The notes under the pieces were generated by a model. That model was not told the origin of the DNA, searched no databases, and saw only the letters and a program-made list of their open reading frames with translations. This document shows positions 4,355 through 61,030 of a stretch of 64,000 nt of DNA, piece by piece. Positions within the stretch are counted from its first letter, which is position 1; every line of letters begins with the position of its first letter. The DNA is taken from contig NC_086097.1 in NCBI RefSeq assembly GCF_963921235.1, positions 110,548,001-110,612,000 on the forward strand, read 5' to 3'. The DNA comes from Mobula hypostoma (Eukaryota). The position numbers and the translations under genes were made by a program.

Positions 4355-5185
4355 ACCACGCCCCCCCCACCACTTTCCACAGAGATCTCTCCCTCCACAA
4401 TTCCCTTGTCTATTCATCCCTCCTTACTAATCTCCCTCCCAGCACTTACCCCTGCAGGTGGCCCGAGTGTTACACCTGCTCATTCACCTCCAAGCAGTCC
4501 TTGCAGCTGAGGCAACTCTATACCTGAGAATCTGCTGGGGTCATCTATTGTGCCCGGTGCTCCTGATGCAGCCTCCTCTACACTGGTGAGACCCGTCGTA
4601 AATCGGGGGACCACTTTGTTAAGTACCTCCTCTCCATCTGCCAAAAGCAGAATTTCCTGGTGGCCAAACATGCTAATTCCAATTCCCATTCCCATTCCAA
4701 AATGTCGGTCCATGGCCTCCTCTTGTGCCACACTGAGGCCACGCTCAGGGTGGAGGAGCAACACCTTATATTCCATCTAGGTAGCCTTCAACCTGTTGGC
4801 ATGAATATCAATTTTTTCCTTCCGATAAAAAGCTTTTTCCCTCCCTCCTCTTTTTCTATTCCCCACTCTAGCCTTTTACCTGTCCTCACCGGCCTATGAC
4901 TTCTGCCTGGATCCCCTCCTCCTTCCCTTTCTCCTATGATCCACTTTCCTCTCCTATCAGATTTCTTCTTCTCCAGTCCTTGACCTTTCCCACCTGCCTG
5001 GGTTTTCCCATCACATTCCAGTTAGACTCCTTCTCTACACCCCCCCCCCAACAACCTTTTTATTCTGGTGTCTTCCCTTTCCAAATGAGTCCTAAAGAAG
5101 GGTCTTGGCCCAAAACCGCAACTATTTATCCATCTCCATAGATGCTGCCAGACCTGCAGAGTTCCTCCAGCATTTTGAGTGTGTA
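4355..5185 (+). mobile_element. Penelope-like element 3' part (GIY-YIG region + terminal repeat)
   Basis: GVIYCARCS*CSLLYTGET GIY-YIG motif at ~4538-4595, EEQHLIFHLGSLQPVGMNI C-terminus, terminal unit with a decayed hammerhead at ~5090. Confidence 0.85.
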
Positions 5186-6019
5186 GCATTTAAGGAGTGT
5201 CTAGATGAGCCGCTGAATCACAAGTCGTAGGTGGCTTTGGGCCACGTGCTGGAATTAATACAGATGGGTGCCCACTGTTCAGCATGGATGTGGATTTCTG
5301 GAGCAAATGAGTTTCTGATTTAATGCCAAGGAAAAAGACTGCAATATGAGTAGCAAATTATTTTGTAAAATATGCAGAAATGATTTTGCCAAGAAATGTA
5401 TTTATAGCTGGGATGTACTGCTGGTCAGCGCTTTGGCTCTCTCCGTGGCAGTCCAGGGGAAATAACGTTTTATGGCCCAGGGAGGAGGCAGCAGAGGGAA
5501 GGGCGTGAGTTCAGATTTCCGAGACAGGGACACTGAAAAATGAGTTGATAAAATAATTTAAAAGACGTATGTGCCATTCAACAGAGGAGCCAAAAAGATG
5601 GAGGAAATCACTTGACTCAGGGGTAGGATCCATGGAAAGTGGAGCAATGCCAAAAATGTACCATGCCTAGATTGAGTTAGAGAACACAAACACAGCTCTG
5701 CACATTCATGTTCACCATATTACACTCATCTATACCAACACCCTGTACCAGCACTTGGACCTTTGCCTTCTACAGTATATTTTTCCAATTAAATGTTTTG
5801 GTGTCAGGCCCTCCAAATACAAAACTCAAACTTTCCCAACATGAGCATTGGGAGAGTACAGACTAACTCAAAAGCAAGATCCCTCCCTAATCCTCATGGT
5901 CCAATAGAGAGACCAGGAATCACATGGTCCAATACAGAGAGATCAGGATCCAGTGGTTCTCAATAATAGATTTGTCAAAAAATTAGTAACAGCATTCATT
6001 AGAAGTCCAAAACTTTCAA

Positions 6020-6909: not shown

Positions 6910-9050
6910 CACCATTGTTCTGTTGTTTAAGAAAGGCTCTAAGAATGGGATGGGAAATAGTAGGCTGGTGGGCCTGATGCCAGTAGTGGGTAAACTATTG
7001 GAAGGTATTCTAAGGGACCAAATAGGGTCTCGGCCAGAAATGTTGACTGTACTCTTTTCCACAGATTCTGCCTGGCCTGCATTCTTCCAGCATTTTGTGT
7101 CTGTTGCATGCATTTATATGTGATAGGTCATATTTAAACCAATCTTACTGAGTGAGGAGGTTACCCGGAATGTTGATGAGAGAAAGGCAGTGGAAGTTAC
7201 CTACATGGACTTTCACAATGACCCACATGCGAGGTTGGTCAAGGAGTTTAGTCACTTGACATTAAGGATGAGATAGTAATTTGGATTATAAATGGGCTTA
7301 ATTGAAGAAGCCACAGAGTGGTAGTAGGTTTTTGCCTTTCTGACTGGAGACATGTAACTAGTGGTGTGCCACAGGGATCGGTGTTGGGTCTGTTGATGTT
7401 TGTCATCTATAGCAATGATTTGTATGATAATGTAGTAAACCAGATTAGCAAATTTGTGGATGGTACCAAGACTGAGTAAACTGGATAGCAAGGAAGGCTA
7501 TCAAAGCTTGCAGCAGAATCTGGATCAGCTAGAAAAATGGGCTGAAAAATGGTAGATGGAATTTAGACAAGCGTGCACTTTGGAAGGACAAAGCAGGGTA
7601 GGGTAGGACTTACAGAGTGAATACTACGACATTGAAGAGTGCAGTAGGACAGAGGGATCTGAGAATACAGATCTATAATTTATTGAAAGTGATGTTACAG
7701 GTAGATACTGTCATAAAGAGTTTTGGTGCATTAGCCTTTATAAATCAAAGTATTGAGTATAGGAGTGGGGATGTTATGTTGAAGCTGTATAAGATGTTTG
7801 AAAGATCTAATTTGGAGTATTGTGTGCAGTTCTGATCACTCACATACAGGAAAGATATCAATAAGATTGAAAGAGTACAGAGAAAATATATGAACGTTGC
7901 CGGGACGTATGAATATATGAGAACGCTGCTGGGATGTCTGAATCTGAGTTACAGAGGAATGTTGAATCGGTTCGGACTTCATTCTCTGGCGCATAGGAAC
8001 ATGTGGGTGGAGCTTAAGAGGACGATGGCGCCTAACGCCGACTCCTCTGCTTGCATCTTTGGAAACAGCTCTATTTCTAACTTTAATATCTCTATTTTCA
8101 CCATTCAGGATTCCTTTGAAGACCCTGACCTGGAGTTATATGCTGACTTCAGTTCTTTGTGGGAATGGGATCCACTCTCAGGGTTTCACGACTGGCCGCT
8201 ATTCGATATGCCAAGGACGTGGCCTAGAAGACTACCGTGCCTTCAGGTTTCCGGGATTTCATGGCTCTGGAGGTGGGCAGACTCAAGGTTGGTGCCTCTG
8301 CAGGGAATTGATGTCTCATGGGAGACAGACGATCCAAAGCAGCAAGCTAGCTGCTGGCTGTGTGCCCAGAGACCCGAGTTCTTTGGGCACAGAGCTCGGA
8401 AAAAGCGATGCAACAGACTCTTAACATCATAAATCAGGGAGTTGTTTGTTATGCCTCCCCTCTCACTGTGAAATGGGAACACCTCTTTTTTCCCTTATTA
8501 GGGGGAGAGCGAGCCTGTGGTATGTCAAATTACCAGGTGAACTAGTAGTCTTTGGGGTACTGCAAGTCTGTGTCTTTATTGATGCTTTGCTGCACGCATG
8601 ATTGCTCGGTGGCGGACACCAAAACTTTTTTTGCTGGTAGGGGAGGGGGATCGCAGCTTTGTTGCTACTTACACATGGGAGGGGGAATTGGTGGGGGGCT
8701 TTGGGGTTCTAACATTTAACTGTCATTCATTCTCTGGGGTATTCCTCTGTTTTCGCAGATGGTTGCGAAGAAAAAGAATTTCAGGATGTATATTGTATAC
8801 ATTTCTCTGACATTAAATAAACCTTTGAATGAGGGAGATTTGACAGAGGTGAACAAAATTATGACAGGTATGGATAGGATAAGTGCATGCAGGCTTTTTC
8901 CACTGAGGCTTGGTGAGATTAGAACTAGAATTCATGGGTTAAAGGCGAAAGATCAAATGTTTAAGGGTAACTTCTTCACTCAGAGGATGGTGAAAGTGTG
9001 TAATACTGCCAGTGGAAGTGGAGGATGTGGGTTTGATTTCAACATTTAAC
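6910..9050 (+). mobile_element. CR1 LINE fragment interrupted by a Penelope end (~7020-7110) and a short non-LTR element (8000-8828)
   Basis: VLLFKKGSK..SRLVGLMPVVGKLLE, GVPQGSVLG, LEYCVQF, resuming at GDLTEVNKIM...NFFTQRMV after 8828. Confidence 0.8.
8000..8828 (+). mobile_element. Non-autonomous non-LTR (SINE-like / internally deleted LINE) element
   Basis: Begins with a gatggcg head, has no RT, ends aagaatttcaggatgtatattgtatac...aataaacctttgaa (LINE-type tail), and splits CR1 coding sequence. Confidence 0.6.
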
Positions 9051-11932: not shown

Positions 11933-12229
11933 AAGCAACACACACAAAATCCTGGAGGAATTCAGCAGGTCTGGCAGTATCTATGGAAAAGAATAAACAG
12001 TCGATATTTCAGGCCGTGACCTTGACAGTTTACTCTTCTTCAGAGATGCTGCCTGACCTGCTGAGTTCCTCCAATGTTTTGATAGATAGATAGATAGGCA
12101 GATATACTTTATTGATCCCGAAGGAAATTGGGTTTTGTTACAGCCGCACCAACCAAGAATAGAGCATAAATATAGTGTGTGTGTTGTTTGGATTTCCAGC
12201 ATCTGCAGACTTTCTTGTGTTTGTGATTA
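11933..12229. mobile_element. Inverted pair of Penelope termini with a nested (GATA)n-tailed LINE end (~12081-12175)
   Basis: ctggaggaattcagcagg...gcagtatct and gatgctgcctgacctgctgagttcctcca are inverted; flanked by aattcaacat at 11923-11932 and 12230-12239. Confidence 0.7.
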
Positions 12230-16181: not shown

Positions 16182-18600
16182 GGCAGCATTCCTATCTCTC
16201 AGCCATGCCAGGACCTCAGCTGTCAGCCATGACTTCTGATCTGCCCTCATGTAGATGTGTTTAGTAACAGTGACATCCTCAGTGCACTTCTCTATGTAGC
16301 CTGTCACAGATCTCACATATTCATCAATATCAATGTGATAGTCGTAGGTAGTCACCTCTCTGAACATACTCCAGTCCGTGTTTCTAAATCAGTCCTGAAT
16401 GCAGAGGCTGCTGATTCTAGCCAGATCTTTATCTCCCTTTGAACTGGTCTGACATGTTTAATCAGTGATTGATAGGCAGGAGTTATCACAACAGATAAGT
16501 GGTCAGTGAATCTGATGTGGTGGTAGGGATGAGGATGAGGAGCAGCTTTGTATGAAACAGAGATGTTGGAATAAACTAGGCCTAATGTGCTCTCACCTCC
16601 GGTAACAAAGTCAACAGACTGACAGAACGTAAGCAGGACTGGGTCCCAGCTATGCCTGCCTGTCTGTCGGGTATGTGGAACAGTCAATGTTCCAAGTCTA
16701 CACCGGTGACCGTTCCACACTTTTCCTACGCTACATCGATGACTGCCTTTGGTGCTGCTTCCTGCACCCATGCTGAACTCGTCAACTTCTTCAACTTTGC
16801 CTCCAACTTTCACCCTGCCTTCAAGTTTACCTGATCCATTTCCGACACCTCACTCCCCTTTCTCGATCTCACCGTCCTGATCTCCTGAGACAGCTTATCC
16901 ACTGGAGTCTATTACAGACCCACAGACTCTCAGAGCTACCTGGACTGCACCACATCCCACTCTGCTACTTGTAAAAACACCATCCCCTTCTCTCAATTCC
17001 TTTGTCTCCGCTGCATCTACACTCAGGATGAGGCTTTTCATTCTAGAACGAAGATGTCCTCCTTTTTCAAAGAAAGGGGCTCCCTTCTTCCACCATCATC
17101 ACTGCCCTCAACCACATTTCTTTCATTTCACGCATGGCTGCTCTTACCCCATCCTCCTGCCATCCCACCAGGGATAGGGTTCCCCTTGTCCTCGCCTACC
17201 AGCCTCCACGTCCAGCACATAATTCTCCAAAACTTCTGCCACCTCCAACTGGATCCCACCACCAAACACATCTTTTCCTCCCCCCTTACTTTCTGCTTTC
17301 CACAGGGATCACTCCCTACACGACTCCCTTGTCCACTCGTCCCTCCCCACTGATCTCTCTCCTAGCACTTATCCTTGCAAGCGGAACAGGTACTTCACCT
17401 GCCCCTACACCTCCTCCCTCACTACCTACACAGTCCTTCCAGGTGAGGCGACACTTCACCTCGAGTCTGTTGGGGTCATATACTATTGTCTGGTGCTCCT
17501 GGTGTGGCCTCCTGTATATCGGTGAGACCTGACATAGATTGGGAGACTGCTTTGCTGAGCACCTATGCTTCATCCACCAGAAAAAGCAGGATCTCCCAGT
17601 GGCCACTCATTTTAATTCCACTTCCCATTCCTATTCCAATATATCCATCCATAGCCTCCAACCTAATGGCATCAACATCGACTTCTCAAACTTCCAGTAA
17701 GGCCCCCACCCACCCTCCTTCACCAATTCCCATCCCCTTTTCCCTCTCTCACCTTATCTCCTTGCCCACCTATTGCCTCCTTCTGGTGCTTCCATCCATG
17801 GCCTTCCTTCCATGGCCTTCTGTCTCTTTCACTAATCACCTTCCCAGCTCTTTACTTCATCCTTCCCCCTCCAGGTTTCACCTATCACCTTGTGTTTCTC
17901 TCTTCGCTTCCCCCACCTTTCAAATCTATTGCTCAGCTTTTTTTTCTCAGTCCTGCCAAAGGGTTTTGGCCTGAAACATCGACTGTACTCCTTTCCGAGA
18001 TGCTGCCTGGCCTGTTGAGTTCCTCCAGCATTTTGTGTGTGTTGCTCGGATTTCCAGCGTCTGAAGATTTTCTCTCGTTTGCTTTTCAGCTAGCGTGTCC
18101 AAAGTCGCCAGCAACAATAAAAGAACTATCTACATTTTCAAGTCACTGATGGGGTCGTAGAGCTCACGCAGTGTCTGCCCAGTATTAGCGGGTGGGTGAT
18201 GTATACAGCCACAATCACAATAGCAGTGAACTCCCTCAGTAAACCAGCACTCTACTATAGGCATACAGTGGGTCGTCACCACCAGTAGATAAACATGCAC
18301 CGCGCATCTTGCCAGAAATCATGGGAATTCTGTCAACATGAAAAGAATCGAAACCCTCTGGCTTGATGGCTGCTTCAAGGGTGGTATCCTGAAGCCACGC
18401 TTCCATCAGGAAGAGGACACAGCAGTCCTTCATCTCACGCTGATTCAGTCTCAGATGCAGGTAATCTAACAGCTTTCTAGTGATCGAAATCCTGAAAGCA
18501 GAATCTATGAAAGAACAGGCCTGAAGGGTTTCACCTATAGTTTTACACGACCACCAGTGTGCTTTCCTCTCCTTTGCTTCCTTGCGCACTGCCTCCAATG
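16182..18600 (-). mobile_element. Older Rex-Babar-type LINE (endonuclease region), split by Penelope 16630-18095
   Basis: CCVLFLMEAWL (18236-18604 ORF), YKAAPHPH...DHLSVVITPAY, SVTGYIEKCTEDV. Confidence 0.7.
16630..18095 (+). mobile_element. Penelope-like element (RT C-terminal half + GIY-YIG + terminus)
   Basis: GPSYACLSVGYVEQ, FLRYIDD, IPFSQFLCLRCI, WCSWCGLLYIGET; terminus has a decayed hammerhead (cagtcCTGCCAA...GAAAcatcgactg). Confidence 0.88.
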
Positions 18601-26947: not shown

Positions 26948-27034
26948 CTTAGAATGCCGTCTCATGAAAGGAAATCCCACGCTGCATTGCAGGAAATCTG
27001 ACTCCACCAGCTCACAGTTAGTGCCTTTTTCTTC
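26948..27034 (-). CDS. ITGA9: Integrin alpha-9-like coding exon (87 bp)
   Basis: cttcAG|GAA GAA AAA...TCT AAG|GTaaga. Encodes EEKGTNCELVESDFLQCSVGFPFMRRHSK (ITGA9 as recalled: EEMGISCELLESDFLKCSVGFPFMRSKSK). Phase 0/0, joins in frame with both neighbouring exons. Confidence 0.95.
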
Positions 27035-30940: not shown

Positions 30941-32664
30941 CTTAACTGGTCAAGTATAACTTGCAAATAAATAGTCAGCAGCAACTAGCCGCTGTTGCTG
31001 ATGTGACCGTGCTCCACCATGAGAAACTTTTAAAAGTTCTGATGGCTAAGTCTAATACCATGAGCTCCAATTCCCAAAGGAAGCCATTTTTATAATAAAA
31101 GATAATGAGAATTTCCTCAATTTGTTCTAATAATTGTTGACTCAGTAAATGTAATCTGGCAACTGATTTCTGCCACAGCTTTTTTCTCAGGCCGGTAGCA
31201 TGCTGATATGCAACTAGACTCCAGCAATCACTTAATACTTATTTTAAGTTTGGAAATGACCAGTTATGTAGTGGCTGCTGTTTTATACCTCACCTAAGTT
31301 CATGTCTACTACAGTGCGTTAAATAATCAGTTCATCTAGCATTTTGTGAGCTGCTCCAGATTCCAGTCTCTTGTGTCTCCAAATAATCAGATAGTCAATC
31401 AACTCTTGCCCGCAGTCTCACTCAGTTTGTCCCATCTGTTTCTCTCTGGTTGCTCTCAAAATGTGAAGTATCAAAACCTCTCAAAAGAGGTGGAGGGTCT
31501 TGAAGGTGGTCAGGCTTTGGGGTGAGGTGTAAAGATGTGTGTAGAGAAGGCATGAGAGTCTTCTCATGGGCTCAGAAGGCACAGTTGTTTCTCCTGACCC
31601 AAGAGGAACCTTGTCTGCCTGTTAATCTCTAACCACCATTGTCTTCAAAGTTCACTTGTTCTTCATGGCATTGGCTTTTTTGGTTTCTATTTCCTTTCCT
31701 GATCGGGAGACAATGAAAATCAATCTCTTATTCTGTGGCATGGAGCAAACCTAACATGAAGAAAAGTTAAAATAGTTATGAAAGTCACAGGCTCTCGATC
31801 AACCTTCCCGAGCAGGAAGCTGCACTCAGACCTTCGACTGCAATTCTAGATTGGATCCCAACATCAACACTGCATATTTAAAGGAGCCTGACTTTCCACT
31901 ATTGGTGTCTCACATAGCTGCTTCAGCAAGTTTCAAAACTTACTTCACATCAGCTACCCCCTTACACAGAGAGTGAGCGATGAGGTAGCTTTTCACCTGT
32001 GCTGAGCATATACCTTGCCTGCATTTCCTTGGTCCCAAGATTCTAAAGGTCAACCTAAGAGTAGAGCTGGAGTCAAATGTAGGCCAGAGCCAACTGTGAT
32101 GGCCGGTTTCATTGCCTGAAGAACCTCCTTCAACAAATCCTTCAACACACAAATTAATTCAGTACTAGCTCTTAAGCTGAACTCCCAACCGCAGGTGTGC
32201 AAATCCAGCATCATTACTACTACACAACCATTTTCATCAACCTGAGAGATTTGAGCACCGGAGAAGGTGGAAGTACCTTAAGTAAAACAAACCTTCCCCC
32301 AATTCGCCTATATGTTAAACCAAGGAATCAATTTTCAAAGGGCTACAGATGAGGAAAAAGAGAGTGAAAATAAGAATAGAAATGATCTTTAATGTAACAT
32401 CTACATGCTAGATGGTATCAGTAAGACAAAGGAAAGGAAAGGATTCAAGCATGGTTTCAAAGAATCCTTGAAAAGATTCCCACTGACTCCTTGATCCAGC
32501 ACCACTAAAAGTGTAGGATGGTGTTGGGAACCTTCAGGCCATGTACAGGCAGCACACAGAAGTCCCTGATAAGTGGTAGAAGTGTTCTTCCACACAAACG
32601 ATAATCTTACCATCCTGTCAAGCCTGCACAAAACCAAATGGGAAGCAGAGCGTGCTCAATCCCA

Positions 32665-33170
32665 CGAACAACACACACACACACAATGCTGGAGGAACTC
32701 AGCAGGTCAGGCAGCATCTATGGAAATGAATAAACAGTCAACATTTCAGGCTGAGACCCCTCTTCAAGACTGGAAGGAAGGGGGAGGACACCAGAATAAA
32801 GATGTGGGGGGAGGGGAAGGAGGACTAACTAGAAGGTGACTGGTCAAGCCAGGTGAGTGGGAAAGGTAAAGGACTGGAGAAGAAGGGATCTAATAGGAGA
32901 GGAGAGTGGACCATCACAGAAAGGGAAGGAGGTGGGTCACCAGGATAAAGGTGAAAGGCAGGCGAGAAGTGTGGGGAATAGAAGAGGGAAAGAGAAGGGG
33001 AAAAATCAGAAGGAGAAATTAATGTTCATACCATCAGGTTGGAGGTTACCCAGACATAATATAAGGTGTTGCTCCTCCACTCTGAGAGTGGCCTTATCGT
33101 GGCAAAAGGGGAGGTCATGGATCAACATGTTGGAACTGGAACAGGGAGAGGAAGTAAAATGGTGGCCAAG
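32665..33170 (-). mobile_element. Penelope 3' end + terminus
   Basis: KATLRVEEQHLILCLGNLQPDGMNINFS; near-intact hammerhead with C3>U (cagtc-tTGAAGA...GAAAtgtt-gactg). Confidence 0.8.
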
Positions 33171-34049: not shown

Positions 34050-34365
34050 CTCCCTTCCCCTCTTCCTCTTTCCCCCACTCTGGCCTTTTGCCTCTTCTCA
34101 TCTGCCTATCACTTCCCCCGGGTCCCATTCTCCTATGGTCCACTCTCCTCTCCTATTAGATTCCTTCTTCTCCAGCTTTTTTATCTTTCCTGCCCACCTT
34201 GCTTCACCTATCACCTTCCAGTTAACCTTCTTCCCCTCCCCCTGCTTTTTTTCGGGCGTCTTCCCCCTTCCTTTCCAGTCCTGAAGAAGGGTGTCGTTGA
34301 CAATTTATTCATTCCCATAGATGCTATCTGACCTGTTAAGTTCCTTCAGCACTTTGTGTAGGCTG
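34050..34365 (+). mobile_element. Penelope terminal fragment
   Basis: Pyrimidine-rich segment, ccagtcCTGAAGAagggt (truncated hammerhead) and terminal unit. Confidence 0.65.
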
Positions 34366-35819
34366 CATAGAAATAGAAATTTGTTGATTTTTTCATTTGA
34401 GTTCATGAATCTAAGATCAAATATAGTCCCTCCCATCCTTTACCCTGTTAAAACCACTGAGGATTGAACATCTTTGGTCCACAGGCTTTCATAGGTCATG
34501 GCTCATTTATTTATTAAAATAACTGGGAAGATAATCCCTTTTAGGAGTATCAAAAACAACAGTGCCTAGGTTAAGATGAGAGAAAGGAGTTTTAAGAAGA
34601 TTTGAGAGGATTTTTTAAAACATAGACAACGATTGATATCTAGAATTTGTTGCCGGAGAGGGTGGAATCAGATATAATTAGTACATTTAAGAAGCTCTTT
34701 AACAGGGACTTAGGGGCAATTTAAAGAAGGGTATAGGCCAAATGTGGGCAAATAGGATTAATCTTGAGGGGTAAAGAGATCGCCATGGACAATATGGCCT
34801 GTTTCTGTGCTGTGCAAATCTATGATTCAGATTCCACAGCAGAAAAATATGAACAGACTCAGAGAAACTTTGAATATTTCTGTAATGTCTGATACTATCT
34901 CATCAGCAGGGAAAATTGAGAGCAGGAGAATGGTGTGGAAAGATAATATATCAGCCATGATTAAGTTGCAGAGCACACTGGATGGGCTGAATGGCCTAAC
35001 TTTGCACATACGTCTTATGGAAAGTATACCACAATGAGTAAAAGAAGCTTAAAATGATAAGTATTAAAAGATTGTTAGCAAGTATTAATTGCAAAACACA
35101 GTAAAAAAAACAAATTCAAAAGGAAAACTTAGCACAATTCTTCTTTTCCCATGCTCATCTTATGTCAACACAATCTCATTTCATTTGCCTTATGAAAATT
35201 TTTAGCATGTCTGCATTTGGCACTGCTGGTACATGTTCTTGTAAATTCCATGATCTCAGTAGCAAGTCTTCTCTCACTCCCCTCCCTTCTCAGTTGTTAA
35301 CTTCCAATTACAAACTAGTAGAAGAATATGAATGGCCAGTGCTAGCAAAACTATTTTCAGTGAATATTGTGAAAAGATTAAACTCAGAACAGCTGGGATG
35401 TTTTTCCATTTAAATACATGTATGAGTGGCTGGTGCTGTACAGGAAATATAAGTGCTCCAGTTCAGAGTCTGTCTTTACATTAAACAAAGCCTTTGGGTG
35501 TTCTTGAAAGAAATACAATTTCTTGTGCATGGAATGTTAGCCATAAAGCTGAAGTTAAAAAAATATGAACTGTACATTCATAAGGAATTTGGAATGTTTT
35601 GTAAAATTAGAGTAATTAAAGGACATCTCTCCTGGGTTCTATTCAAATATTCTTTTAACATTTGGGTCGCTATTACTAGACAATTTTCCAAGTGGGCCTT
35701 ATCAAATAATTTAAAAATGAAAAACATTGCTGCTTTCAAATATTATGAAGACGGTGTGATTTGCAGGACAAAAAAATACTTGCCTTCAATACCTCACACA
35801 GTATATTAACTAACATTTT

Positions 35820-41368: not shown

Positions 41369-42850
41369 TCAGTCCCTTTCCCAATGCCTTTTTATCACCC
41401 TGACCTCCCCAGTCTGGGTCTCTGAACTAAGGTCTAACACGCTCTTTAATATCAATGACTGACAAGCTCCAGTGTCTCTCCAGATCCGTACTGGAACCGG
41501 GTTTAACCCCTTTTTCACTGACAGCAATCCGGCCGAGATAAACCTCTCGCGCCCTTCCTGAACTTTATCAGACCTCATCTTCCCTAGCGGTTTGTTTACC
41601 AGCTCAATACAGCCAGTTGGAACCGTCGTTTTCCCTTTCCCCGTCTCCTTCTTTGGGGCAAAGCACCTGGACGCAAGGTGTCCGGCTTTCCCACAATTAT
41701 AGCATACGACCCCAGGAGACTTCCTACCAAACTGCTCCCTGTCTACCTTATCCTTCTCACTAGTCCCTGGCTTACTTTCTGGCTTTTCTGGCGGATTTTC
41801 CCCGCCCTCTTGACTATCCTTCTGGTAGCCTTTACTCGGGGTAAACTTCGCTTTGTGCATTAACGCGTATTCATCCGCTAACTTAGCAGTTGCGGCTAAA
41901 GTGGCTGCCTCTTTATCGACTAGGTAGGGTCTCATACCTTCAGGGACACAACCTTTAAACTGCTCAATCAGGATTAGCTGTAGCAGTCTGTCATAATCCC
42001 CATTGACCCCTTTTGAGGCGCACCAATGCTCACAATACATCTGCATCTCACGGGCAAACTCTAAATACGTGCGGCCCCACTGCTTCCTCGCATTCCGGAA
42101 CCTCTGCCAGTATGCCTCCGGGACCAACTCATAAATCCTGAGTATGGCCTCTTTCACCACATCATACCTCTGGGCATCTTCTGCGGACAAGGCCGAGTAA
42201 GCTTGTTGGGCTTTTCCTTTAAATACACTCTGAAGCAAAACAGCCCACTTATCCCTCGGCCAGTCCTGACTTGCAGCAACTTTTTCAAAATGGAGAAAGC
42301 ACCGATCAACATCGGCCTCCTCAAATGGGGGAACCAGCCTAACCTCCTGGGTCGCCCTGAACCCTCTACCTTGGTTCGGCATGGGCCCCTGCGCTAGCGT
42401 CATCCTTAACTTCTCCAGCTCAAATTCCCTTTCCCTCTGTTTCTCCCTCTCTTCTCGCTCTAACTGCCTGTCCCTCTCTTCTCGCTCCAATTGCCTGTCC
42501 CTCTCCTCTCACTCCAGCTGTTTTATTCTCTCTTCGCATTGTAACTGCCTGTCTCTCTCTTCTCGCTCCAGCTGTTTTACCTGGAACTCGTGCTCGAGTC
42601 TCAATTTTTCCATCTGCAGCTGTACTGCTTCTCCACCAGGTTTGCCCATAGATACCACCTCCAGCTCCCCTTGGGGAGACACACCTTTAGATACATAATG
42701 CTCAATGATAGCTCTGTGCATCTCTGCTCTCCTCACTGTCGACTTCCCCTTAAAAAGATTCAACCGTTTGGCCACAGTTGCCAATTCTGATTTCCTGGCA
42801 TCCTCTAATGCTTCCAAGGTTGGCGCCTTTAGAAATTCCTCAATCTCCAT
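41369..42850 (-). pseudogene. Gypsy gag-protease: coiled coil, SCAN-like capsid domain, CCHC knuckle, aspartic protease start
   Basis: ORFs 42509-42850 and 41369-42490 are in the same frame, separated by one TGA. Motifs: YWQRFRNARK..LILIEQFKGCVP (SCAN-like), CYNCGKAGHLASRC, RDTGACQSLIL. Confidence 0.88.
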
Positions 42851-50715: not shown

Positions 50716-51204
50716 GTTATAACCAAAGAAATGGTTATAATCTCACAGCAACTTACTCTGCATGTAACAATGAACAATTCATCAGGACTTGATGAACAAT
50801 TCAGAAACATGGAAAAACACCCTTATTTTTAATCATTCTCAACTCAGGCACAGGCCTTTCAAAGTCCAACCCTACGTCCCCATCGTGAGAGGTGGAAACA
50901 GCCAACGGGGCTCTGGTGAAGCTGTATAAGCCAATCCCCCATACAGTAGATAACAGAAACATTGATGAACTCCAACCAGACCATCAACTTTGGACAATGG
51001 AGACGAGAGGTCATCACTGGCCTGTGCTCCACTGGGAGCTCAGAGTCCAAAATAAGAGAACTGAGGCACAGGCTCTGCATCAATTGCAAAAAGACCAAAA
51101 GTTTTAAACTTTGTGATCTCAAAATGCATCTATGGATTACTAACAACACACATCAAAGTTGCTGGTGAATGCAGCAGGCCAGGCAGCATCTCTAGGAAGA
51201 GGTA

Positions 51205-51242
51205 CAGTCGACGTTTCAGGCCGAGACCCTTCATCAGAACTA
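51205..51242 (-). ncRNA. Minimal type I hammerhead ribozyme motif (Penelope-type), copy A
   Basis: Minus strand tagtt-CTGATGA-agg gtctcgg cct-GAAA-cg-TC^gactg. Intact core, one G-U pair in stem I, 112 nt from copy B. Confidence 0.77.
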
Positions 51243-51316
51243 ACTGAAGGAAGAGTTAGTAGCATCAAAGTTGCTGGTGAACTCAGCAGGCCAGGCAGCA
51301 TCTCTAAGAAGAGGTA

Positions 51317-51354
51317 CAGTCGACGTTTCAGGCTGAGACCCTTCATCAGGACTA
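51317..51354 (-). ncRNA. Minimal type I hammerhead ribozyme motif (Penelope-type), copy B
   Basis: Minus strand tagtc-CTGATGA-agg gtctcag cct-GAAA-cg-TC^gactg. Intact core, 3-bp stem II, palindromic ACGU minimal stem III, GUC cleavage triplet, stem I agtc/gact. Confidence 0.8.
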
Positions 51355-51495
51355 ACTGAAGGGTCTCAGCCTGAAACGTCGACTGTACCTCTTCCTAGAG
51401 ATGCTGCCTGGCCTGCTGCGTTCACCAGCAACTTTGATGTGTGTTGCTTGATTTTCCAGCAACTGCAGAATTTCTGTTGTTTATGGATTACTAAC

Positions 51496-51646
51496 CTTCT
51501 GCCACATCTTGATGAAGAAGAGCTCTTGAGAGAAGTTAAAATAAACATTGGTGTCATATGCATCATCCCCAGCATTTAAAATGGTCACATTCACAGAGAT
51601 GTTCTTCACTGCCCCCAGTGCCAGGAAAGTCTTGTGTCTATCAAAG
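51496..51646 (-). CDS. ITGA9: Integrin alpha-9-like coding exon (151 bp; extracellular leg region)
   Basis: Minus strand: tttattttcAG|C TTT GAT AGA...TGG CAG AAG|GTtagt. Encodes FDRHKTFLALGAVKNISVNVTILNAGDDAYDTNVYFNFSQELFFIKMWQK, which matches my recollection of human ITGA9 YLALGAVKNISLNISISNLGDDAYDANVSFNVSRELFFINMWQK. Length is 1 nt + 50 codons, ending in phase 0. Confidence 0.93.
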
Positions 51647-54594: not shown

Positions 54595-55230
54595 TTTAGA
54601 ACATAGAACAGTACAATACAGGACACAAAATACTCTGCAGATGCTGGGTTCAAAACAACACTCACAACATGCTGGAGGAACTCAGCAGGTCGGGCAGCAT
54701 CCGTGGAAACGTTGACTGATCATTTCCACGGATGTTGCCCAACCAGCTGAGTTCCTCCAGCGTGTTGTGAGTACAATACAGGAACAGGCCCTTTGGCCCA
54801 CAATGTTGTACCAACTAATTAAAATAGTAATCAAATGGCTAACTAAACTAATCTCTTCTACCTACACAATGTCCATATCCTTCCATTTTCCTCACATTCA
54901 CATTTCTATCTAAATGCCTCTTAAAAGTCCCTAATGTATCTGCCTCTACCATTACCTCAGGCAGTGTTTTCCAGGTACCCGCCACTCTCTGAGTAAAAAA
55001 AATTTGCCCCTCACACCTCATTTGAAATTACTCCCTTTCACCTTAAATGCACACTCTCTGGCATTAGACATTTCAAGCCCTGGAAAAAGATATTGCCTGT
55101 CTACTCTATCTATGCCTCTGATAATCTTATAAACATGTATCAGTACTCCCCTCAGCCCCTGCTGCTCCAGAGAAGAAAACCCAAGTTCATCCAACCTCCT
55201 GTTGTAGCACATGTCCTTTAAAACAGGCTA
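54595..55230 (-). mobile_element. CR1 3' end (host of 54624-54769)
   Basis: RLDELGFSSLEQQGLRGVLIHVYKIIRGIDRVD; agaacatagaaca tail. Confidence 0.8.
54624..54769. mobile_element. Inverted pair of Penelope termini with 14-bp TSD
   Basis: AGTACAATACAGGA at 54610-54623 and 54770-54783; ~50-bp inverted arms. Confidence 0.85.
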
Positions 55231-57559: not shown

Positions 57560-59020
57560 AGCACCAGATGGCATGGACCCCAGCAATGCCTGCCTTTTCG
57601 TTGGCTATGAGGAACAGTCCGTGTTCCAAACCTCCTCTGGTAATGCTCCCTAACTCTTTTTGCACTACTCTGACAATTGCATTGATGCTGCATCATACAT
57701 CCATGCTGAGCTCGTCAATTTCATCAATTTTGCCTCTAATTTCCACTCAGCCCTTAAATTCACTTGGTCCACTTCTAACATTTCTCTCCCCTTTTTCAAT
57801 CTCTCTGTCTCCATCTCTGGAGGCAAAATGTCTACCAATAGCTTTTTATAAATATACGGAATACCACAGATATCTTGACCATACCTGTTCCTACCCTGTC
57901 TCCTGTAAAAATGCAATTCTCTTTTCTCCATTCCCTTGTCTCCACCGCATCTGTTCCCAAGTGAGGCTTTCTTTTCCAGGACATCAGAGATATCCTTCTT
58001 CAAAGGACAGGGTATCTCTTCCTTCATCATCAAAGCTGCCCTCACTCACATCTCCTCCGTTTCCCAGACTCCTATGCTCACCCCATCTCCCCATCGCCTC
58101 AACAGGGTAGAATTCCTCTTGTTGTTACCTCCACATTCAACACTTTATTCTCCGCAACTTCTGCTACCTTCAGTAGGATCCAAACACATCTTTACTTCCC
58201 CTCCCAACTCTGCTTTCTGCAGAGATCACTCCTTTCATGATGCCCTTTTCTATTCATCCCTCCCCACTAATTTCTGTCCTAACACATATCTCTGCAAGTG
58301 ACAGAAATGCTACTCTTTCCCATTTACCTCCTCCCTTACCTATATTCAGGACTCAAACAGTCCTTCCAGGTGAGGCAACTCTTCACCTGTGAATTTGTTG
58401 AGATAGTCTATTGCACCTGGTGCTCCTAATGGAGCCTTCTCTAAACTGATGAGACCTGATGCAAGTTGGGGGACCGCTTTGTCAAACAACTCTGCTCCAT
58501 CTGCCAAAAGCATAATTTCCCAGTGGTCAACTATTTTAACTCCTATCCCCATTCCTGTTCCGACATGTTGGTATATTCCCTCCTCTTCTGCCACAATAAG
58601 GCCATTCTCAAGGTGAAGAAACATCACTTCATATTCCATCTAGGTGGCCTTCAACTTCGATTTCTCCTTCTGGTATTTTTTTTTCTTTTCCCCTTCCCTC
58701 TTATATTTCCACTCTGGCCTCTTTCTTCTTCTCCTCACTTGCCTATCACCTTCCCCTGATACCCCTCCTTTTTCCCTTTCTTCCATGGTCCCCTTTCCTC
58801 TTCTACCAGATTCCTTCTCCACCCCATTCCCACTCACCTGGTTTCATCCATCAGCTTCTAGTTTGTTCTCCTTCCCCTTCACCCACCTTTTTATTCTGGC
58901 ATCTTCCCCCTTTCTTTTTAGTTTGATGAAGCGCCTCGGCCCAAAACATTGCCAATTTATTTATTTTCATTGATGCTGCCCGACCTGATGAGTTTCTCCA
59001 GCTTTTTATGTGTGTTGCAT
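57560..59020 (+). mobile_element. Penelope-like element (RT C-terminal half + GIY-YIG + terminus), degenerate
   Basis: Colinear with 16630-18095: HAELVNFINFASNFHSALKFTWS, KHHFIFHLGGLQ. Confidence 0.85.
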
Positions 59021-59999: not shown

Positions 60000-61030
60000 T
60001 GCTGCAAGTCATGTAGCATAGCCAGAAATTGGCAGGTATGACACTAAGTCATGGACCTTTCCGATATTTCATCCTCCACCTGATGCACATCTTCAAAGGC
60101 CAGTCCTTCACTTTCCTCACTTCCAGTAAGGATCAGAGTAATTCCCGACTCCAGACAGCGGATCCTGTTGTCTCCTACTCCAGTTCCAACACCCGGGACA
60201 CCCTCAGACCACGGTCCTTGTTGCCTCCCGCTCGGACCTCTATTGGATTGGATCTCGCTGACTCCAGTCCCGGCTCTGACTGCCCACGACACACCCGGAC
60301 CAGTGACACGATTGTCGGTACCACGAGCAGATCCAGACCTCTGACTGCACCACTATCAACTCCAGTTCGTATGAACCCCATCGCCTTCAGTCTGCAAATT
60401 GCACAGCCCCTAGTTCCGGTGCCAGCCTGGACTTCAGCCACCAGCATCTCCTGGCTGAGACTTTCCCCACTGCCACTGGACCCCTCTTCACCCACTACCG
60501 TTCTCCAGCCACCAGTCTCTCAGGCTCCACCTTCACCTCTTGGGTCTTCTGAGCCTCCATCTTCTTCCCACCCCACCTTCCCTGAACACCCCAACCCTCT
60601 CCCTTCCTTTGATTCCTCCAACTCTCTTCACTCCTCTGATCCAAGTTCTAATTCTTGCCGTGCCTTCACCATTCCCTCTGACCTTTCCCTCTCTGAGGCA
60701 GAACGTTCTGTCCTCAGCAAGGGCTTTACCACTGGCCCGTCCACCCGCACCTCAGCGAGTTCAGTGCACGCTATGACACCGAGCCCTTGGACACCCCTCT
60801 CTGGTTCTCTGCCTGCTCTGGATCTTTTCATCTCGAATTGCTGATGAGACATTGACCAGCTCAACTTCAGCACTCCTCTTTCCTCCTCAAGCCTTACCCC
60901 CTCTGATTCTGTCAGCTTCACCCTTCCTTTCCAGCCCCGAAGAAAGGTCTCGGCCTGAAACGTTCAACTACTTATTAATTTCCATTGATGCTACCTGACA
61001 TGCTGAGCTCCTCCAGAATTGTATGTGTAT
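60000..61030 (+). mobile_element. Penelope N-terminal (Pro/Ser-rich) region fused to a terminus
   Basis: FTIPSDLSLSEAERSVLSKGF...WTPLSGSLPALDLFISNC, then terminal unit with a decayed hammerhead at ~60935. Confidence 0.75.

Follow-up and report, generated by a model that had tools for sequence, protein, structure and literature searches.

The window analysed here, a 64,000-nucleotide stretch of ray DNA, carries two tandem hammerhead ribozyme motifs. These motifs very probably arrived in a young 337-bp insertion of abundant Penelope-like terminal-repeat fragments at a splice donor of the integrin alpha-9 gene (ITGA9), in which they are predicted to be locked by an inverted copy of the same repeat and are likely inert. 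The limits of the insertion, its target-site duplication, the empty site, the parent element, the copy number and the private junction are established directly, and the reading of inactivity rests on nearest-neighbour folding together with papers on other species.

Position and sequence features of the hammerhead motifs

A sequence scan located two minus-strand motifs of the form CUGAUGA - 13 nt - GAAACGUC^GACU, with C3 at 51349 in copy 1 and at 51237 in copy 2. The two motifs lie 112 nt apart in tandem with predicted cuts at 51322/51321 and 51210/51209, exactly as the original prediction had placed them, and Tandem Repeats Finder reports a period of 112 with 1.9 copies and 95% matches. A regex scan of both strands confirmed that these are the only full minimal cores in the 64-kb window; other regex matches at 34906 and 12043 were rejected as they are not family-type cores. 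The bare CTGATGA-N-GAAA pattern is weak by itself, occurring 5 times within the window against 1.95 expected and at least 5 times in 6 of 100 shuffles. Across the genome, the relaxed core pattern has 89,440 matches against 111 for its reversed control; therefore, the core pattern is not a chance occurrence. An Rfam search, which had been suggested as a check on the prediction, returned no match in the 64 kb at gathering score and no hammerhead among the 12 matches at E<=10.

Both copies contain the CUGANGA and GAAA boxes and an NUH cut site. Neither has an intramolecular stem III, and each carries instead a palindromic ACGU without a loop, giving four cross pairs between the copies. Stem I consists of 5 bp (with a U-G closing pair in copy 2), and stem II consists of 4 bp with an extra A unpaired at its 5' side. 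The 10.1-11.1 pair is G-U in both copies rather than G-C, a feature outside the descriptor of PMC4209133; among the first 100 family matches this pair is G-U in 82 and G-C in 18. Copy 2 additionally has AGTT in stem I in place of AGTC, with U for C adjoining the core. The genomic counts of the two variants are 630 for AGTT versus 60,689 for AGTC, and the copy 2 variant is predicted to weaken the helix needed for cut 1. The earlier description of both ribozymes as intact consequently holds for their catalytic boxes and fails for stem I of copy 2. The proposed fitness of the tandem geometry for a dimer was borne out, as the dimer can be folded with 22 pairs, each of them a standard or a G-U pair.

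Two minor features of the cores were also observed. Both copies have a T at core position 7 (window 51345 and 51233), a base that, counted by eye, 6 among the first 100 exact matches to the family also have. Template jumping does not account for this shared minority base, which is a point against the explanation favoured here, and candidate origins are CpG decay occurring twice, one source molecule, or conversion. In addition, an ATG within the core box of each copy opens a short frame on the minus strand (window 51147-51347). The ORF of the anole element is reported to start at its hammerhead (PMC11167929); in the ray, most family copies have ACG at this place, so the core-box ATG is probably not a start codon.

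Host gene and intron

Directly upstream of the insertion in the transcript lies an ITGA9 coding exon of 151 nt (51496-51646, minus strand). It has AG/GT boundaries and an open frame and encodes Ig-like domain 2 of the integrin leg (Pfam Integrin_A_Ig_2, PF20805, E 5.7e-9). Over 50 aa, its translation is 100% identical to the integrin alpha-9 proteins from two myliobatiform rays, and myliobatiform rays rank above skates, sharks and bony vertebrates among the 120 matches listed. The next ITGA9 exon was placed by tblastn at 26948-27034 (minus strand), which sets the intron length at 24,461 nt, and tblastn placed a further exon near 25200-25116, also on the minus strand. Because these next exons are on the same strand, the motifs are in the sense of the ITGA9 transcript. 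The domain match, the ray identity and the exon order together uphold the original assignment to an ITGA9 intron in transcript sense. Two RNA-like runs gave no coverage of the upstream exon. Counted from its 5' end, the intron would be cut after nucleotides 174 and 286 of 24,461, in agreement with the first estimates of about 175 and 285 nt into an intron of about 24.5 kb.

Anatomy and age of the insertion

Both motifs are held by one 337-bp insertion (51145-51481) of Penelope-like (Neptune-type) terminal-repeat fragments, which is bracketed by exact 14-nt repeats representing the target-site duplication. The exon-side copy of the duplication (51482-51495, minus strand) begins with the real GT donor, and the intron-side copy (51131-51144, minus strand) supplies another GT donor, a weak one, at 351 nt from the start of the intron. 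The duplicated target opens with the intron's first base; hence the splice donor was copied and the exon was left untouched. The second donor agrees with 5 of 9 consensus positions versus 8 of 9 for the real donor and, if used, would be followed by an in-frame stop after 4 codons.

In transcript order, the insertion begins with a 35-nt terminal-repeat tail (51447-51481, plus strand), found at this insertion end only, and a 90-nt arm (51357-51446, plus strand), both in antisense. The arm is an inverted 5'-truncated copy of the terminal repeat whose own core is cut off at the junction. Two fragments follow in sense. Fragment 1 (51263-51362, minus strand) contains hammerhead 1, with the 5' strand of stem I at 51354-51350 and the core at 51349-51322, while fragment 2 (51145-51262, minus strand) contains hammerhead 2, with its core at 51237-51210, and ends at the repeat's short end. 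Nucleotides 51357-51362 are common to fragment 1 and the arm, leaving a 6-nt overlap at the inversion junction. The interval to which attention was originally drawn takes in both motifs and omits the inverted arm and the target-site duplication, the two features that decide the interpretation.

The empty site was recovered in one contig of organism C (depth 6.4), which joins 51482 directly to 51130 with a single copy of the 14-mer and extends 228 and 223 letters to each side. These flanks differ from the window at 14 of 451 letters; therefore, the insertion is young, as had been supposed for the undamaged cores. For organism B, three runs of one sample each yielded one contig that reaches 24 nt into the element from the exon side, with 6-7 differences over 443 letters. 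Bridging was defined by a rule of 31 letters, below which these contigs fall, and they offer no more than a hint that organism B has the same insertion. Among the matches listed, the two central junctions of the insertion were not seen in independent contigs, which is a point against the explanation favoured here; one run that may share its source with the window does not count as independent. An empty allele was not found in the ray's own genome, where the exon-side flank is single copy. Two other sources of the tandem were disfavoured: local duplication of copy 1, since about 11 nt of the family's upstream sequence are present in copy 2 and missing from copy 1, and an assembly artefact, since 5 of 100 positions differ between the copies.

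Element family and parent element

The 32-nt core has 54,196 exact genomic copies versus none for its reversed control, equivalent to 1.0 expected per 64 kb, and the relaxed core count given above corresponds to 1.6 expected per 64 kb. In a DNA search of the ray's own genome, the 40 places scored out of 632 candidates showed 97-100% identity to copy 2. Thirty loci chosen by likeness to copy 2 carried AGTT in all but a few cases, and family statistics were taken from 30 position-ordered loci instead of this likeness-chosen set. These position-sampled cores fall into end classes of 15 at the short end, 12 at the tail and 3 elsewhere. An inverted upstream partner accompanies 8 of the 30 (6 of 28 distinct insertions), and a direct partner accompanies 2 of the 30, at 794 and 1,136 nt. 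No tight tandem of two young intact cores occurs among the first 100 cores listed; two same-strand pairs less than 500 nt apart were rejected as tight tandems, having separate ends with other DNA between them. With so tight a tandem being uncommon, the ITGA9 locus is more dimer-ready than most, a point in favour of the original reading. A search of 3.48 Gb that tolerated one mismatch found the 112-nt junction of this locus (51249-51276) a single time, and the 112-nt unit is thus private and not a circulating monomer.

Longer copies of the terminal repeat reach more than 1.4 kb upstream, into reverse transcriptase (RT) and GIY-YIG frames. Three frames were scanned: the parent RT matched PF00078 with a best E of 4.9e-6, below the curated cut-off, and the GIY-YIG endonuclease matched PF01541 with an E of 2.8e-5, above the cut-off in 1 of the 3 frames. 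A CX4CxxC linker between the RT and the endonuclease was read from the translations of two loci, L034 and L032. PMC8557442 describes a CX2-5CxxC linker for Neptune and also a sharing of this motif with Nematis; the element is putatively assigned to the Neptune clade on the linker motif. The parent element and the core features agree with the original identification of the motifs as Penelope-type minimal type I hammerheads. A search of literature listings found no dedicated paper on this ray family or on hammerheads in cartilaginous fish; one chondrichthyan genome is included in bioRxiv 10.64898/2026.07.22.740005.

Parent-element frames running from RT to GIY-YIG were observed at L034:864-2120 (minus) and L033:3213-4529 (plus), with 419 and 439 codons, respectively. 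Copies of the parent element are 93-95% alike, several with long internal inversions, and this degree of likeness suggests a recent burst. Two family insertions were observed in copies of one LINE-like repeat (L034:3169-5593 and L035:320-2705, 92% alike over 2.4 kb). Their common host possibly reflects a target preference, or plain abundance.

Antisense arm and predicted folding

The arm is 98% complementary to each hammerhead copy, pairing with 51263-51345 in copy 1 (83 nt, with an 11-nt loop) or with 51144-51233 in copy 2 (90 nt), with two non-Watson-Crick positions in either duplex. Within each hammerhead, the duplex takes in both stems, the GAAA box and the cut site, together with part of the first box. 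The arm starts 49 nt past the donor and is transcribed ahead of both hammerheads, and the folding z for the region is -21. In equilibrium folding of the growing transcript, copy 1 was arm-paired with a probability of 1.00 in every snapshot, with the 3' end moving from 51325 to 51160. At full length, the arm is predicted to pair with copy 2. A gap of 7 kcal/mol separates the two arm-paired states, and the distal end of the arm offers a 7-nt toehold. In both states the core-facing part of the arm is occupied.

Forcing the dimer costs 26-27 kcal/mol without the arm versus 70 kcal/mol with the arm. For comparison, a natural same-strand pair without such an arm (L069) gave a dimer cost of 24.5-26.3 kcal/mol, and another natural pair with an internal inverted piece gave 65-67 kcal/mol. 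Because the baseline of 25-27 kcal/mol lacks calibration on an active ribozyme, the increment of about 44 kcal/mol is the one meaningful figure. One result is a point against inertness: in the full-length fold copy 1 becomes free, and forming its stem II with an open core takes only 6 kcal/mol. The dimer is nonetheless predicted to be blocked in cis, because it needs both copies free and the arm always buries one core. Monomer release is also unlikely, since both cuts are required and cut 1 would rely on the weakened stem I of copy 2. The original suggestion of a co-transcriptional cut in the intron is not supported as likely by these folds, which would have the arm capture copy 1 on its emergence and copy 2 at full length. 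The suggested release of a 112-nt circle, which would proceed through the same dimer, fares no better.

Published activity and relationship to known systems

According to PMC4209133, a minimal hammerhead without its own stem III must pair its ACGU with a second copy, and Schistosoma minimal hammerheads have no monomer activity and low dimer activity. Of the Xenopus dimers in bioRxiv 10.64898/2026.07.22.740005, 1 of 9 cut; this was a REP4 dimer, and its cleavage was very efficient. The hammerhead of the anole element is reported to cut only with the element protein and to leave no ends in RNA-seq (PMC11167929). Loop contacts tied to efficient ligation are described in PMC7229834 as missing from minimal hammerheads. 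Slow intronic ribozymes spare splicing while fast ones impair it (Dye 2006, Fong 2009, as described in PMC2995048, PMC10919898). By analogy with the slow ones, the effect on ITGA9 splicing that had been put forward is not supported, and even unlocked hammerheads would probably have a small effect. Among Xenopus retrozyme-like copies, the intronic share is given as 42-44%, yet these copies are under-represented for intron size (bioRxiv 10.64898/2026.07.22.740005); copies in introns are therefore common, and there is a hint that selection acts against them.

Apart from G10.1-C11.1, every feature tested identifies the ITGA9-intron motifs as Penelope minimal hammerheads in a Neptune-type insertion. 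They share with the hammerheads of Cervera and de la Pena 2014 (PMC4209133) the core boxes, the lack of an own stem III, a palindromic 15.2-16.2, a short helix I, one extra nucleotide past A9 and a site in the terminal repeat of an RT/GIY-YIG element. Also alike are the predominance of dispersed truncated copies and the opposite-strand pairs. In contrast, stem II has 4 bp in the ray versus 7-8 bp in the Schistosoma families, and 10.1-11.1 is G-U in the ray versus a highly conserved G-C in the same report. The copy number of 54,000-89,000 in the ray is about ten times the values of about 4,000 for coelacanth and about 9,000 for Xenopus given there.

The insertion resembles Neptune-clade EN+ elements (PMC8557442, PMC3846280) in having two direct repeat copies in partial tandem and one inverted 5'-truncated copy, a tail at one end, a short target-site duplication and an overlap at the inverted junction, and the parent resembles them in its RT, CX2-5CxxC linker and C-terminal GIY-YIG. 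It differs in that repeat ends alone, with no coding sequence, were inserted in the ITGA9 intron. The anole Poseidon element PAc (PMC11167929) likewise has two 3' end classes set a 30-40-nt tail apart and a hammerhead about 90-125 nt before the ends, and the end classes of the ray family correspond to the two sites at which reverse transcription was shown to start in the anole element. PAc, however, belongs to another clade and has been assayed.

Metazoan non-LTR retrozymes (PMC7229834; bioRxiv 10.64898/2026.07.22.740005) are similar in their tandem type I hammerhead units derived from Penelope terminal repeats. The ray unit, in contrast, is private to one locus, is accompanied by an antisense arm, and has the minimal form in place of the canonical type I hammerhead of the 2020 retrozyme definition (PMC7229834). 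Host-regulatory intronic ribozymes, such as the HDV-like ribozyme of CPEB3 (PMC10919898) and the amniote hammerheads cited in PMC7229834, similarly lie in the sense of a long coding-gene intron. Those are described as conserved monomer folds, whereas the ray motifs are missing from a close relative, have tens of thousands of counterparts and each depend on a partner copy; conservation at the orthologous site was not found, the organism C site being empty. Judged by its sequence, the ITGA9-intron pair is neither a retrozyme family nor a conserved host ribozyme.

Evaluation of alternative explanations

In the reading originally proposed, a cis dimer in the nascent ITGA9 transcript would cleave the intron close to its 5' end, reduce splicing and perhaps release a circularising 112-nt monomer. 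We regard this as very improbable, even though the motifs are on the right strand with both catalytic boxes, a palindromic ACGU and every dimer pair possible. The arm would capture copy 1 before copy 2 exists and add the increment calculated above, and the two cuts needed for a monomer would depend on the impaired stem I of copy 2. Published dimers speak on both sides: some activity is recorded for minimal-hammerhead dimers (PMC4209133) and one Xenopus dimer is very active (bioRxiv 10.64898/2026.07.22.740005), but the minimal form is without the ligation-linked loop contacts (PMC7229834). An intron of 24.5 kb would leave minutes before the next exon (inferred from a quoted 3.5-4.1 knt/min), and an intronic ribozyme does modulate Cpeb3 (PMC10919898); splicing, however, is not blocked by slow ribozymes (PMC2995048, PMC10919898), and the insertion is absent from the close relative, organism C. 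On the folding predictions, a functional inference of intron cutting is unlikely. A comparably improbable variant treats the arm as a strand-displacement switch, which would capture hammerhead 1 and, through the toehold, be handed to hammerhead 2 (7 kcal/mol better). Thus freed, hammerhead 1 would find a trans partner in abundant Penelope RNA and, helped by the element protein, would cleave the ITGA9 pre-mRNA in cells with an active transposon and in no others. If this were true, arm locks would explain ray tolerance of about 90,000 ribozyme cores, and sense-strand intronic tandems would be predicted to survive only when locked.

Somewhat less improbable, and still unlikely, is that the hairpin rather than the ribozyme acts on ITGA9, with the 83-90-bp duplex and the duplicated donor altering splicing, or with the duplex undergoing ADAR editing or Drosha/Dicer cutting. 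Long intronic inverted repeats are ADAR substrates, and the length of the duplex, its position 49 nt after the donor and the 22-26 adenosines in the arm would suit such a role. A>G differences, however, are equally frequent in DNA and in the one RNA-like run and stem from other family copies, so no editing signal is readable. The duplicated GT donor would favour altered splicing, but it has the poor consensus and early stop noted above, and annotated ray proteins include a full-length integrin alpha-9 in which these exons are joined. The region scores on several miRNA-hairpin Rfam models below their gathering scores; as miRNA precursors these were rejected as generic long-hairpin matches, and such hairpins are common in this genome. 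The least credible reading makes the 112-nt unit a non-LTR retrozyme monomer spreading via RNA circles. A tandem repeat of two units with canonical or minimal hammerheads probably fits the operational definition of bioRxiv 10.64898/2026.07.22.740005, but the single genomic occurrence of the defining junction largely refutes this reading. Furthermore, the sequence is collinear with the end of the autonomous element, and the retrozymes described in PMC7229834 have canonical hammerheads and monomers of about 300 nt.

The young insertion with locked hammerheads, which we prefer to these readings, would have begun with two nicks by the element endonuclease, one where the exon meets the intron and the other 14 nt inside the intron. 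Template jumps during reverse transcription, initiated in the two start zones known for the repeat, would then have yielded the tail, the inverted copy and the partial tandem. In the pre-mRNA, the 83-90-bp hairpin would form co-transcriptionally, leave one monomer without its own stem III and be removed by splicing together with the intron, perhaps after some A-to-I editing. Based on the predicted folds, the likely product is a long intronic hairpin and not a cut or a circle.

As a single locus, this standard footprint of a Penelope-type insertion matters little. The ITGA9 insertion is nonetheless useful as a test case, offering a dated empty site, a private junction for read assignment and a natural comparison with and without the arm, and it could help to decide if host pre-mRNAs are ever cut by metazoan minimal hammerheads. 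Should cleavage take place despite the arm, tens of thousands of intronic ray copies would become potential splicing regulators. The orientation bias of genome-wide cores in introns could reveal activity in vivo.

Other repeats in the ITGA9 introns

About ten older terminal-repeat fragments, 70-83% identical, were observed in the ITGA9 introns on both strands. Related fragments were mapped at 5088-5187, 7024-7115, 11933-12229, 17949-18080, 32664-32780, 34265-34343, 54634-54754, 58918-59018 and 60920-61010, and the fragment at 11933-12229 resembles a head-to-head pair. The intron holding the insertion also contains a 27-nt minisatellite of 4.9 copies at window 42444-42574.
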